Below are positions 33,705-37,801 of a DNA stretch of 37,801 bases, in pieces (positions within the stretch are counted from its first letter, which is position 1; every line of letters starts with the position of its first letter). Where the stretch lies: contig DASZNB010000139.1 of assembly GCA_035551395.1 (NCBI GenBank), forward strand, positions 1 through 37,801, given 5' to 3'. Below the pieces are notes generated by a model, which ran no database searches, had not been told where the DNA came from, and worked only from the letters and a program-made list of their open reading frames with translations. A program made the translations under genes and the position numbers. Origin of the DNA: Solirubrobacteraceae bacterium (lineage in GTDB: Bacteria > Actinomycetota > Thermoleophilia > Solirubrobacterales > Solirubrobacteraceae).

Positions 33705-34142
33705 CTAGGACGCCGGCAGGTGACAGACCTCCTGTGCGACCTGCAGCACGAACAGCTGCAGGTGACGCAGCACGGCCGGCTGGGCGGCCGAGTTGTCGCT
33801 GAAGCGGACACTGCCGCTTTCGTCGCGCAGGGTGTAGGTGAAAATCGAGCCGGCCTTTGCCGGCAGCGAGAGCCGCTGGTCGGCGGCGTCGTGGATTTCT
33901 TCCTGGATCGCGCGCGCCTGCACGAGCTGTGGGTCGCTCAGCTTCAGAGTCGGGCCGCCGTTGCAGCGAACTGCGCCTTCTTCGTTGACGAGCAGCGTGA
34001 GCTGGGCGTGCGGCGTCGAGCCCGAGCGGCTCACCACGAACAGGTCGGCCGCGCGCACGCCCCCACATCCGGCGAGCGCAGCCAGTGCGAGGCCGGCCAC
34101 GGCAAGCGCCCTCGGGACAAGGCCCCCGTGGTCGGTGCTCAC
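33705..34142 (-). CDS. Hypothetical lipoprotein
   Basis: Signal peptide with lipobox LAGC. GTG start overlaps the ggt stop. Confidence 0.7.
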   Translation of the reverse strand: MSTDHGGLVPRALAVAGLALAALAGCGGVRAADLFVVSRSGSTPHAQLTLLVNEEGAVRCNGGPTLKLSDPQLVQARAIQEEIHDAADQRLSLPAKAGSIFTYTLRDESGSVRFSDNSAAQPAVLRHLQLFVLQVAQEVCHLPAS

Positions 34143-35611
34143 GTGCTCACCGCCACGCCGCCGCGGCGTGGATCGCCGGCCCCGCTGAGCTTGCCGTCGC
34201 GTCTCAGCGCAGCCTGGACGCCGCCGAAGAACAGGTTGCGCGCAGCGAACGCCACGACGCGCTCGGCGCCGCCGAGCTCGCCCAGCTCGATGCCGGGCTC
34301 AGCGAAGACGACGCCATCCTCGTAGTGGATCCGCGCCGCGTCGACGGCGGCCTGGGCCTCCATGCCGTGATCGACCGCTGCGACGATCGTCTGCAGCAGA
34401 GCCGAGCGAATGCGGTTCGAGCCGGCGCTGCCCAGGACCAGCTCGACCTCGCCGTCACGCAAGACGATCGAGGGAGCCATCATGCTCGGCATCCTGCGCC
34501 CCGCAGGATGCCGATGAAAGCCAAGCGGGTTGAGGTCCTCCTCCCCCATCACGTTGTTGAGGTGAATCCCCGTCCCCGGCACGACCACGCCCGAGCCCTC
34601 GCCGTTGGTACACGTGGTGCTGCAGGCGCGCCCCTCGCCGTCGATCACCGAGATGTGCGTCGTCGAGCCCAGGCGACTGGCGAGGAAGCGCTCGAGGAAG
34701 CGCTCCTCCTCGAGGCCTTCGACGAACTCCGGCGTGCGCTCGGACTGCGCCGCGGCCATCGCCGCCAGGATGCCCCGCAGGCTCGGCGGCGCGGGTTCGC
34801 GATTCAGCAGCGCGAGCGCGTACGCGAGCAGCGTTCCCCCGGCCGACGGCGGCGGGTTGGTGAGGATCTCGCGGTCGCGGTAGACGACGAGGACGGGCTC
34901 GCGTTCCACCGCGCGGTAGCCGGCGAGGTCCGCCGGCGTGAGCGATCCCCCGCGCTCGCCCAGCCATTCACACACCGCCGCCGCAACGTCGCCCCAGTAG
35001 AACGGCTCGGGGCCCTCGCGGGCAAGTCGCATCAGCGCATCGCCGAGCTCGGGGTTCACGAGCATCTCACCCTCGCGCAGGATCCGTCCCCGCGGCGCCC
35101 ACAGGGCGGCACACTCCGCCGTCGAGGTCAAGAGCGTCGCGAGGATCTCCGCCACATATGCCTGGCCGGCGTTGAGCACGACCCCGTCGCGGGCGAGCCC
35201 TGCGGCCGGCTCGGCGAGCTCCTCGAGAGACATGGTGCCCCAGCGGCGCGCGGCCTCGCACACGCCGGCGGGGGCGCCGTAGACGCCGCAGGACGCGGGA
35301 CCGATGTGGAAGCGCTGGGCGGCGTCCCCGAATGAGACATCGACGCCGAGCAGCTCCGCCTCCGAGCCGTCGCCCACACGCGTGGGCGCCTGCACGAAGA
35401 AGTCGAGCAGCGCGGGCGACACCCCGCCTCCCGCCACGAGCATGTGGCCGCCCGCGCCGAGCCCGGTCAGCAGCGGCTCGGCGACGAACGACGTGAGCAT
35501 CGCCGCGACGGCCGCGTCCACCGCATTGCCGCCTTCGCGCAGAACCCGCGCCCCCGCCTGCGCGGTCAGCGGATGGCCCGCTGCGACCACGCCCTTGCCT
35601 TCACCCATCAC
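34139..35611 (-). CDS. ggt: Gamma-glutamyltransferase family protein
   Basis: Motifs GGNAVDAAVA, GLGAGG, STTHISVID (Thr nucleophile), SMMAP, GSAGS and DPRRGG. Confidence 0.92.
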   Translation of the reverse strand: MMGEGKGVVAAGHPLTAQAGARVLREGGNAVDAAVAAMLTSFVAEPLLTGLGAGGHMLVAGGGVSPALLDFFVQAPTRVGDGSEAELLGVDVSFGDAAQRFHIGPASCGVYGAPAGVCEAARRWGTMSLEELAEPAAGLARDGVVLNAGQAYVAEILATLLTSTAECAALWAPRGRILREGEMLVNPELGDALMRLAREGPEPFYWGDVAAAVCEWLGERGGSLTPADLAGYRAVEREPVLVVYRDREILTNPPPSAGGTLLAYALALLNREPAPPSLRGILAAMAAAQSERTPEFVEGLEEERFLERFLASRLGSTTHISVIDGEGRACSTTCTNGEGSGVVVPGTGIHLNNVMGEEDLNPLGFHRHPAGRRMPSMMAPSIVLRDGEVELVLGSAGSNRIRSALLQTIVAAVDHGMEAQAAVDAARIHYEDGVVFAEPGIELGELGGAERVVAFAARNLFFGGVQAALRRDGKLSGAGDPRRGGVAVST

Positions 35612-35661: not shown

Positions 35662-37104
35662 TCAGAAATTAGGCAAAAACTCGGGCACGTCTAGTTCGTC
35701 GACGGCCAGCCCGCCACGACGAGGCTCGCGGCTCGGCCGCGACGGCGTGGCGCGCTGGACGCGGACCTCGCCGGTCGTGGCTGGCTCTTTCAGGCGGCCG
35801 AGGCTCTTGCGCCTGCCCTCGTCGCCATAGCCGGTCGCGACGACCGTCACCCACACCTGGTCGTCGAGCTTGTCGTCGACCATCGCGCCGAAGATGATGT
35901 TCGCGTCCGGGTGCGCGGCCTCCGAGACGGACTTCGCGGCCTCGTTGACCTCCCACAGCGAGAGGTTGGGGCCGCCCGTGATCGACAGCAGGATCGAGCG
36001 TGCGCCGTCCATCGAGGTTTCCAACAGCGGCGAGGAGACGGCCTGGATGGCCGCCTCGGTGGCCCGGTTCTCGCCGATGCCCATGCCGATCCCGAGCAGG
36101 GCGTTGCCGGCATCGCTCATGATCGTGCGCACGTCGGCGAAGTCGAGGTTGATGAGACCGGGCAGGGTCACGAGATCGGAGATGCCCTGCACGCCCTGGC
36201 GCAGCACGTCGTCGGCGACACGAAAGGCCTCCACCATCGCGGTCTGCTTGTCGAGCACGCCGAGCAGCCTGTCGTTCGGCACGACAATTAGGGTGTCGAC
36301 CTCCTCTGCCAGCGCGCCGACGCCGTGGTCGGCCTGCTCGCCACGGCGAGACCCCTCGAAGCCGAACGGCTTCGTCACGATCGCGACCGTCAGAGCGCCG
36401 ACTTCGCGGGCGATCCGAGCGACCACCGGGGCAGCGCCGGTGCCGGTGCCGCCGCCGGCGCCGGCCGCGATGAAGATCATGTCCGAGCCCTTCAGCAGCG
36501 CCTTCATGCGGTCGTAGTCCTCCATCGCCGCCTGGCGGCCGATATTGGCGTCCGAGCCCGAGCCGAGACCGCGGGTGAGCTCGGCGCCGATGTGCAGCGT
36601 GAGGTCGGCGGTCGACTGCTGGAGCGATTGCAGGTCCGTGTTGACGGCGAGGAACTCGATCCCCTCGACCTCAGCCTCGACCATGCGGTTGACCGCGTTG
36701 ACGCCCGCGCCGCCGACGCCGACGACGCGAATGATCGGCCGGCCGACGGTCCCCGGCGCGGAGGCGGCGTGATCGCGCGGGTAGTCCGCGAGCGCCGAAT
36801 GCCGGACGGGGCGCTCGAGCACGTCCTCGGGGATCTCCGAGGAGAAGGCGTGGCGCAGACGCTCCTGCGGCGAGGGCACGCGGACCTCCTGCTCCGGCGT
36901 GCGCTGGGAGGCGGCGAGCGCCGGGTGCGGCAGCCCGCTCTCGCGCGGGTGGGTCGGCGGTGGCGCGGACGGCTCGACCGGCTGGGTCGCCGCGGCCTCG
37001 GCCTCGGCGGGCTCCTGTGTGGGCTCGCCCTCGCCACCTTCGGTCTTGCGGAAGAGTGCCGCCAGGGGTCCTTCGCGCATGCTCGCGCGCTTAGCGTTTG
37101 CCAT
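35662..37104 (-). CDS. ftsZ: Cell division protein FtsZ with an N-terminal extension of about 120 aa
   Basis: Motifs VVGVGGAGVNAVNRM, NTD.Q.L, GGGTGTG, PF.FEG, GLINLDFAD and C-terminal peptide LDVPEFL. ATG 37104 follows SD AGGAGG, which lies inside parA. Confidence 0.96.
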   Translation of the reverse strand: MANAKRASMREGPLAALFRKTEGGEGEPTQEPAEAEAAATQPVEPSAPPPTHPRESGLPHPALAASQRTPEQEVRVPSPQERLRHAFSSEIPEDVLERPVRHSALADYPRDHAASAPGTVGRPIIRVVGVGGAGVNAVNRMVEAEVEGIEFLAVNTDLQSLQQSTADLTLHIGAELTRGLGSGSDANIGRQAAMEDYDRMKALLKGSDMIFIAAGAGGGTGTGAAPVVARIAREVGALTVAIVTKPFGFEGSRRGEQADHGVGALAEEVDTLIVVPNDRLLGVLDKQTAMVEAFRVADDVLRQGVQGISDLVTLPGLINLDFADVRTIMSDAGNALLGIGMGIGENRATEAAIQAVSSPLLETSMDGARSILLSITGGPNLSLWEVNEAAKSVSEAAHPDANIIFGAMVDDKLDDQVWVTVVATGYGDEGRRKSLGRLKEPATTGEVRVQRATPSRPSREPRRGGLAVDELDVPEFLPNF

Positions 37105-37801
37105 GGGTGAGAACCTCCTGCGCGAGTTGTCGGTAGGACTGGGCCGCGACACCGTCGGGCTCGTACTTGAGGACCGACATGCCCTTCACGGGAGCCTCGG
37201 CGAAGCGGACGGTCTTACGGATGCGGGAGGCAAAGACGCGGTCGCCGAAGTTTTCCTCGAGGATCTCGATGGCCTCCTTGGCGTGGATCGTGCGCGAATC
37301 CACCAACGTCGGGAGGATACCCTCGATGTCGACGCCGGGGTTGAGATTCTCACGAATCATCGCGAGCGTGTTCTGCAGTTGGATCAGGCCACGCATGGAT
37401 AGATACTCGCATTGCACGGGGACGATCACCTTGTCGGCTGCCGTGAGCGCGTTGATCGTCAGCAGCCCGAGGCTCGGCGGCGTGTCGATGCAGATGAAGT
37501 CGTAGTCGTCGAGGATCGGTTCGAAGGCCTTCTGCAGCGAGCGCTCGCGCCCGATCATCGTCGACATCGCGATCTCGGCGCCGGCGAGGTCGATCGAAGC
37601 GCACGCGACATCGATCTCGCGCTTGCGGATCACCTCGCGGACGGAGACCTTGTGCACGAGCACGTCGTACATCGATTTCTCGAGCGTGTCGGGGTCGATC
37701 CCCTGCGACATCGTCAGGTTGCCTTGCGGGTCCATGTCGACGCACAGCACGCGGTGGCCCTCCTCGGCGAATGCGGCCGCGAGGTTCAGCGTCGTCGTCG
37801 T
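37091..37801 (-). CDS. ParA/Soj-family ATPase (5' end outside the window)
   Basis: Frame is open to the window edge: TTTLNLAAA..VLCVDMDPQGN, DLAGAE, IDTPPSLG, PVQCEY and TVRFAEAP. Its stop overlaps the ftsZ start by 14 bp. Confidence 0.93.
   Translation of the reverse strand, partial: TTTTLNLAAAFAEEGHRVLCVDMDPQGNLTMSQGIDPDTLEKSMYDVLVHKVSVREVIRKREIDVACASIDLAGAEIAMSTMIGRERSLQKAFEPILDDYDFICIDTPPSLGLLTINALTAADKVIVPVQCEYLSMRGLIQLQNTLAMIRENLNPGVDIEGILPTLVDSRTIHAKEAIEILEENFGDRVFASRIRKTVRFAEAPVKGMSVLKYEPDGVAAQSYRQLAQEVLTHGKR

Follow-up and report, generated by a model that had tools for sequence, protein, structure and literature searches.

Why should an FtsZ begin with a basic peptide on a long tether, and why directly behind the gene of a ParA-type ATPase? 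The question arises at one end of a 37,801-nt contig of a Solirubrobacteraceae bacterium (the window, by which we mean the whole stretch of DNA analysed). According to PMC13170346 and PMC10241942, activators of ParA/MinD ATPases are short basic N-terminal peptides, and the partners that bear them link the ATPases to cargo or belong to it. The FtsZ of the window, here named FtsZ2, has the layout of such an activator, with a basic N-terminal peptide, a disordered tether and a gene lying beside that of the ATPase, and an initial annotation had proposed that a ParA-partner module was fused onto FtsZ. The features concerned are the following.

37091..37801, minus strand: gene of an orphan Soj/ParA-type ATPase, its 5' end lost at the contig end (AAA_31, E 1e-50; stop codon TAA at 37093-37091; full-length relatives)
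37114..37119, minus strand: Shine-Dalgarno sequence AGGAGG within the QEVL codons of parA, 9 nt 5' of the ftsZ2 ATG (from the sequence)
35662..37104, minus strand: ftsZ2, the second FtsZ gene of the genome, 480 aa (TIGR00065, 404 bits, equivalog cut-off 295; 14-nt overlap of its start with the parA stop)
37042..37104, minus strand: tip peptide, residues 1-21 (MANAKRASMREGPLAALFRKT), candidate ParA-binding/activating motif (conservation, profile matches)
36880..37041, minus strand: acidic Pro/Glu/Ala linker (residues 22-75), of varying length and sequence (alignment; low pLDDT)
36817..36879, minus strand: second island VPSPQERLRHAFSSEIPEDVL, residues 76-96, with a predicted short helix at 79-87, in part of the Solirubrobacterales only (alignment, model)
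36739..36816, minus strand: second variable linker, residues 97-122 (alignment)
35830..36738, minus strand: FtsZ GTPase core, with GGGTGTG at 36436-36456 and the T7 loop INLDFAD at 36133-36153 (profile match, motifs)
35665..35697, minus strand: C-terminal FtsZ peptide ELDVPEFLPNF (sequence, comparison with relatives)

The ATG at 37104 opens an intact reading frame of 480 codons. The extension, put at about 122 residues by the initial annotation, comprises exactly 122 (36739-37104), because P123 of PIIRVVGVGG starts at 36738; it begins with the basic tip described there (MANAKRASMREGPLAALFRKTEGG, net charge +4 across residues 1-21), followed by the acidic Pro/Ala/Glu linker (a Pro/Glu/Ala stretch, net -7 across residues 22-75). 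The choice of ATG 37104 as the start is backed by the AGGAGG sequence, by the overlap, in which the parA TAA covers ftsZ2 codons 4-5, and by a high GC3 throughout the extension. Among relatives, a Shine-Dalgarno-like word lies ahead of the first ftsZ2 start in 62 of 69 distinct loci, and translational coupling between parA and ftsZ2 is maintained over 11 families. A start near the FtsZ core was ruled out, just 7 of 68 loci having both a Shine-Dalgarno sequence and a start codon no more than 25 codons away from it. M9 is not the start, because the residues 5' of this invariant Met are conserved as protein, with Ser8 encoded by AGY (48) or TCN (11) codons in 59 loci. In the window, a GTG with a Shine-Dalgarno sequence stands right ahead of the second island (V76, 36879), and this candidate was rejected as well, such a combination being found at that position in just 6 of 61 relatives.

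Nor is the arrangement an assembly artefact, since it recurs in 80 further loci. The gaps between parA and ftsZ2 vary from -71 to +24 among relatives, the -14 overlap being common, and synonymous change is free, which excludes that conservation of the tip is imposed by the overlap or by an RNA element; that of K5 is partly forced, because two bases of its codon belong to the parA TAA as well wherever this overlap is present. In RNA runs, shares were below 0.1, and the parA/ftsZ2 junction is spanned in run X4 by three contigs from relatives, which show neither the strand nor a single transcript. On the 3' side of ftsZ2 lies a gene of the gamma-glutamyltranspeptidase family (34139-35611, minus strand), likewise present in the scanned loci of families f4 and f9 (families are coded f1-f13), and probably a passenger.

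The genome of the window holds another ftsZ, with a short leader, on contig C51. Behind this canonical copy come glycine-cleavage genes, trpS and an scpA-like gene. Solirubrobacterales is an order within the class Thermoleophilia, and at least two ftsZ matches were found in 146 of 151 Thermoleophilia genomes and one in the other five; in other classes, 14 of 15 genomes have one ftsZ and the fifteenth has none. All five single-ftsZ assemblies are among the eight that lack the tip peptide, and such a subset fits incomplete assembly. A quick tree built from 41 of the 99 collected cores places FtsZ2 in one clade (SH-aLRT 96, 16 of 41 rows) beside the FtsZ1 of the class, and its longer branches indicate faster evolution. 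FtsZ1 adjoins murG/murC/murB/ftsQ in the eight relatives whose neighbours were scanned, with sepF in two of them, whereas FtsZ2 differs from a housekeeping FtsZ in being neither the sole ftsZ nor part of the mur/ftsQ (dcw) cluster. SepF was found in five of five genomes.

FtsZ2 retains the sequence motifs of an FtsZ: GGGTG[TS]G is present in 69 of 69 sequences, the T7 motif NxDxxD in 68, and the C-terminal anchor peptide in 57 by pattern and 62 by inspection. In the window the latter reads ELDVPEFL, and we take ELDVPEFLPNF to be an anchor site of the SepF/FtsA type. The anchor peptide is absent from six of six f7 sequences (loci L059-L061, L063, L066 and L093), which thus fit the role of a ring component less well. 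The tails of these six proteins are long and of low complexity, and in three of the loci the parA/ftsZ2 overlap is altered, the genes still being adjacent. Such losses, together with the faster evolution of FtsZ2 and an effect of the orphan ParA PldP on Tat dynamics (10.1101/2025.07.02.662783), would suit a positioning cytoskeleton of ParA and FtsZ2 apart from septation, serving polar growth, appendages or organelle spacing, but the anchor peptide kept in most sequences and a core above the ftsZ equivalog cut-off make this very improbable. Placement of FtsZ2 for division is the purpose that we would put forward, at evenly balanced confidence.

The relatives of the study genome belong to Solirubrobacteraceae or Solirubrobacterales in 80 of 80 named records. 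When 24 Solirubrobacterales extensions (out of 28 extracted) were aligned, R6, S8-L14, L17, F18 and T21 were invariant in all of them at a mean column identity of 31%, so that KRASMREGPLxxLFRxT contains eleven invariant residues between linkers that do not align. The conserved island in a variable linker, which the initial annotation expected from such an alignment, is therefore real, and it stays constant in extensions of 42-182 residues (68 loci with the core in frame). Because synonymous sites vary freely and Ser8 uses both codon families, selection acts on the protein and reaches 5' of M9. A profile of 44 sequences matched the peptide in 143 of 151 Thermoleophilia genomes at E<=0.001; among 277 genomes from other classes, no match had an E value under 0.014. 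In 79 of the 80 named Solirubrobacterales loci the motif has a parA end at most 400 nt upstream, and in 77 also an FtsZ core in frame. Variants of the tip include SMRDGLSELFRRT in f8, SMKEGALSNLF in f11 and SLKNSGLADLF in f10, the f8 form MRDGLxxLF having the hydrophobic spacing of ParB L11-L15-L18-I19. Pfam and NCBIfam hold no family for the extension. Nearly all examined members of this class of soil actinobacteria thus carry a second, parA-coupled FtsZ with a near-invariant tip of about 20 residues.

A profile search of 1.84 billion representatives returned 1111 peptide matches at E<=0.001. The best 150 of these all contain MREGPL, and most stop before the core, six having the core pattern; several continue into unrelated or out-of-frame sequence. 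We read these as apparent fragments or misassemblies, among which stand-alone forms are possible. In f11, an unrelated protein of about 170-190 residues and no Pfam match ends in the FtsZ2 tip motif (RASM.E.GVA.LFRRT-stop) in six of six genomes examined (L129:979-1551 and L255-L259; G046, G090, G063, G051, G068 and G057), and a GGDEF-domain gene then follows in all six loci. This protein is possibly another partner, or another cargo, of the FtsZ-linked ParA, and its C-terminal copy suggests a portable tag for which an N-terminal position is not required. No second carrier of the peptide was found in the study genome (55% complete) or, at E<=0.001, in most genomes of the class.

The second ordered-looking patch reported in the extension does exist as VPSPQERLRHAFSSEIPEDVL, and its role as a general part of the module was ruled out by its restriction to certain lineages: the pattern occurs in 29 of 30 f1, four of four f2, four of four f3 and the single f6 sequence, is degenerate in f4 (0 of 7), and is found in none of 22 sequences from f7-f11 and f13. 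A single-chain model of FtsZ2 built with 27 sequences (mean pLDDT 57, pTM 0.40, with low values in some of the core too) fits a disordered extension and is too poor to judge packing.

On the side of the ATPase, a strain variant of the 5' part missing from the window is present on contig C90. The end of C90 overlaps window positions 37644-37801 by 158 nt of parA, of which 147 are identical, and the 11 differences, all silent and in third positions, imply an assembly in which close strains are mixed. Upstream of parA on the C90 side is a divergent gene for an ArsA-like ATPase, as in G005. With the window parA being cut, the Walker A motif was read from relatives and C90, and residues were mapped through alignment to 8RAY (with the offset of its D60A) onto the M. 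xanthus sites tested in PMC12462528; for the residue counts, group labels were set by patterns in the downstream DNA, and three canonical ParAs landed in 'other'. ParA trees comprised a quick one of 98 rows (19 near-duplicates thinned) and a careful one of 54 of 139 rows. The FtsZ-linked ParAs form one clade (100/96), apart from the parB-linked ParA of the class, which is present separately in 10 of 10 class genomes examined.

K11, K16, D38, D40, N44 and R186 are conserved in 67 of 67 FtsZ-linked ParAs, as is R/K215. The cleft is hydrophobic at the six positions tested in M. xanthus (L127 67/67, L129 66/67, I/V132 67/67, I/L/M93 66/67, M/L164 61/67, L/I169 66/67), and in the arginine pocket, formed in M. 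xanthus by Y81/E82/D110/E117, the FtsZ-linked ParAs have Y/F61 (65/67), D62 (58/67) and D/E87 (67/67). The position of M. xanthus E117, a Glu described as invariant for arginine binding (PMC12462528), is Ala in 65 of 67 FtsZ-linked and Glu in 26 of 30 parB-linked ParAs. Position 153 is Glu in 28 of 30 parB-linked ParAs and Arg in all FtsZ-linked (67/67), partner-linked (19/19) and scpA-linked (5/5) ones, as well as in a third orphan clade. The FtsZ-linked enzyme thus reads as a peptide-binding ParA whose specificity has probably changed. The Ala also costs it one residue of the known arginine pocket, and with the Arg of the tip one place off that of ParB, activation may differ or be absent. 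Its Walker A motif KGGVAKT is common to the third orphan clade, unlike that of the partner-linked clade. This third clade, presumably Rv3213c-like (PDB match to 4PFS), is followed by a small CxxC...CPxC protein (L096, L132, L143, L156, L168, L240), possibly a zinc-ribbon partner. A further deep-branching ParA-like gene occurs in Solirubrobacterales (G000:C114:25799-26584, L004; L180, L192-L195), and that of G000 comes after an FHA-domain gene.

ParA might instead use the tip as a handle by which FtsZ2 is sequestered over the nucleoid or destabilised there, in a MipZ-like or nucleoid-occlusion-like negative control. The DNA-binding arginines are retained, the acidic arginine pocket is altered in a way that could allow binding without strong activation (the two being separable, PMC12462528), and loss of pldP gives minicells (PMC3989709). 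Against it, the long and flexible tether leaves the tip ill-placed to block a polymer interface, FtsZ1 has no such handle, and the MipZ profile matches weakly (E 3.5e-7, against 1e-50 for AAA_31); we judge such control unlikely. The ParA chain ends in EVLTHGKR, with variable tails, and the C-terminal amphipathic membrane helix of MinD is absent.

The reading of the tip as a likely handle for ParA, docking and activating, gains from the orphan ParAs of other actinobacteria. The motif 'R.SLPGA.ELFR.T', which the initial annotation gave for the small genes after these ATPases, is real: behind the best ParA match in many of these bacteria stands a gene of 110-190 aa that begins with RASLPGADELFRxT, followed by a variable linker and a conserved domain. 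Of 277 genomes from outside the class, 66 have it (62 strong, four weak and partial; the tally includes nine unpublished genomes). The stand-alone gene was found in none of 24 Thermoleophilia genomes. Its C-terminal domain, modelled at pLDDT >90, resembles a ribbon-helix-helix (RHH) fold at modest Z (TraM, Z 5.4, rmsd 2.2, 50 aligned; pCXC100 ParB, Z 4.5; omega and ParG lower), an assignment that rests on the run of RHH matches because VIA Z values of 4-5.4 lie below the tool's distinctive level. Foldseek returned nothing for the domain at E<=0.001, its top row being pCXC100 ParB with E 1.5, Pfam and NCBIfam no family beyond E 0.008 for six of six partner proteins, and the partner profile had no match among PDB sequences; the Atlas gave unnamed clusters only, with RHH families at 0.83-0.85 as leads. 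Loci of this type are L094-L099, L130-L145 and L169, and the small RHH-like protein is a candidate ATPase activator in its own right. The activator of PldP is reported as unidentified (10.1101/2025.07.02.662783).

How closely the tip is related to these partners was assessed with profile windows from 56 FtsZ2, 16 partner and 20 ParB sequences. FtsZ2 against partner scored 17.8, which none of 100 column shuffles reached, in a match that spans nine columns, the LFRxT half, of windows picked by pattern and anchored on LF; the similarity expected to genes after orphan ParAs was thus borne out for that half. The one expected to ParB N-termini was not, the score of 7.8 being equalled in 24 of 100 shuffles, no better than chance; the tip lacks the ParB motif LG[RK]GLxxL[IL] and has LxxLF and basic residues alone in common with it. 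Independently of pattern choice, weak peptide matches outside the class fall on partner-gene starts in 2 of 7 and 5 of 46 cases, at E 0.1-0.3 and in one family.

Two further readings meet this evidence. The tip could anchor FtsZ2 to the membrane as a short amphipathic helix, or be bound by a protease or a different divisome protein, with gene coupling as mere co-regulation: PLAALFRK has a hydrophobic moment of 0.56, the ParB likeness is not significant, and the C-terminal position in f11 is, we infer, a frequent one for membrane-targeting helices. Yet the mean hydrophobicity is near zero over about two turns, Ser, Arg and Thr beyond the helix are invariant despite free synonymous change, a related peptide and a shared slot connect it with the RHH partners of orphan ParAs, and coupling persists in 11 families, so that we give this explanation little credence, if slightly more than sequestration. 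The slot itself is seen in f8, where three of three genomes read parA-ftsZ2-scpA-scpB, in place of the parA-partner-scpA-scpB found elsewhere, followed by a pseudouridine synthase gene where the locus extends so far; no scpAB follows ftsZ2 in scanned loci of the other families or in the window, and five ParAs of the partner-linked clade run directly into scpA with no partner gene between.

In the other reading, a ring-borne FtsZ2 would be a landmark activating and clearing ParA at mid-cell, while the gradient moves DNA or other cargo (for instance, the chromosome or something related to SMC-ScpAB) off the septum. Elsewhere the slot beside scpA-scpB is filled by an RHH protein with predicted DNA binding, FtsZ2 retains polymerisation motifs and, in most families, the anchor peptide, Rv1708 interacts with ScpA and ParB (PMC10482377), PldP is located at division sites and on the nucleoid (PMC3989709), and the tip-ended f11 protein could be another cargo. 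The RHH partner missing from the class and the want of a second peptide carrier in the study genome and most of its class speak against it, and we consider it a minority reading, the least improbable of those set beside ours.

The proposed fusion of a ParA-partner module onto FtsZ accordingly stands as regards the island, its N-terminal position, the coupling to parA, the related partner peptide and the slot, and falls as regards likeness to the ParB motif; absence of the partner gene in the class belongs to its genomic support too, as does the shared parA-X-scpA-scpB slot. The initial annotation missed the canonical FtsZ beside which this second one exists. In its origin, a duplicate ftsZ would have replaced the RHH domain of the partner gene in an ancestor of Thermoleophilia, and convergence or domain shuffling between paralogues is possible. 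The best ParA tree unites the partner-linked clade with parB-linked ParAs (95/88), leaving out the FtsZ-linked clade; a common clade of FtsZ-linked and partner/scpA-linked ParAs is absent from it but not rejected (p-AU 0.21), and a union with parB-linked ParAs has p-AU 0.076.

The mechanism that we propose, and hold at even strength, is that the FtsZ2 tip binds and activates the adjacent upstream ParA, and that a nucleoid ParA gradient positions FtsZ2 polymers. Binding to the co-encoded ParA is probable, and stimulation of its ATPase leans to the probable side. ParA-ATP dimers would coat the nucleoid through their conserved arginines; M9, L14, L17 and F18 of the tip would fit into the hydrophobic cleft where the two subunits of the dimer meet, with R6/R10 setting off ATP hydrolysis. 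Through the charge changes in ParA (Ala at the E117 position, Arg153 for Glu), the pair would be kept apart from the cell's own ParAB. Polymerised FtsZ2, showing many tails, would be a multivalent activator like ParB clusters, and a diffusion ratchet would carry it to the division site, there to join or seed the FtsZ1 ring. With the tip as a likely docking/activating handle, the ATPase would act on FtsZ directly; as far as the sequence goes, FtsZ2 may be its cargo, a landmark for it or a target that it inhibits. Tentatively, and at somewhat less than even confidence, we extend this to a tubulin homologue that may be both cargo and activator of a nucleoid ParA and place the ring without Min, Noc or Pom, its tip being a portable ParA tag that would mark the parA2 RHH-like protein as an activator and be reused C-terminally in f11.

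Archaeal FtsZ1/FtsZ2 pairs are also paralogues kept lineage-wide; the bacterial duplication described here is independent, and the papers listed mention no archaeal coupling to ParA. MipZ of Caulobacter and MinCDE are likewise systems in which a ParA/MinD ATPase governs FtsZ placement; they act negatively and on untagged FtsZ, whereas the FtsZ2-linked ATPase is Soj-like and lacks the MinD membrane helix. In PomXYZ of Myxococcus xanthus, a nucleoid-binding ParA/MinD ATPase is tied to FtsZ positioning, as proposed here, and the activator is a short basic N-terminal peptide on polymer-forming PomX, FtsZ2 being a putative polymer former too (PMC13170346); there, the peptide sits on separate proteins and FtsZ is recruited, while here it sits on the duplicate FtsZ itself, in a two-gene unit without PomX/PomY. 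The ParB motif of ParABS (PMC12462528) resembles the tip in its basic and hydrophobic residues ending in LxxL[FI], its disordered tether and its gene behind parA, and the pocket hydrophobics and DNA-binding Arg are kept in the FtsZ-linked ParA. Unlike ParABS, FtsZ2 has no GLGRG, an offset Arg and no ParB CTPase/HTH domain, its ParA carries Ala at the E117 position and Arg153 in place of a Glu, and the class has a separate parAB. With the orphan ParA2/PldP/Rv1708/SCO1772 and its RHH-like gene (a clade label resting on scpA adjacency and papers), the pair has in common the tip RAS..LFRxT, the R153 signature and, in f8, the scpA-scpB slot; distribution is mutually exclusive, and the C-terminal module is RHH there and FtsZ here. 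Type Ib adaptors (ParG, omega, pCXC100 ParB; for the role of the ParG tail, see PMC12462528) have the flexible N-terminal tail and RHH of the stand-alone partner, FtsZ2 lacking the RHH.

Searches of PMC open-access and bioRxiv texts turned up no account of Thermoleophilia having two FtsZs, of parA and ftsZ forming a pair, or of an FtsZ bearing a ParA-partner peptide. The parA-ftsZ2 pair is real, class-wide and apparently undescribed, it lies outside ParABS and PomXYZ, and its sequence suggests that it functions as a ParA with its activator, the part of the activator being played by FtsZ. For septum placement in actinobacteria, it offers a minimal hypothesis of two proteins, and it makes the small RHH-like gene a candidate activator for the orphan ParAs, of the PldP type, of other actinobacteria. 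If the proposal is true, FtsZ would be the direct partner of a ParA, and an abundant class of soil bacteria would run two FtsZs with split roles.
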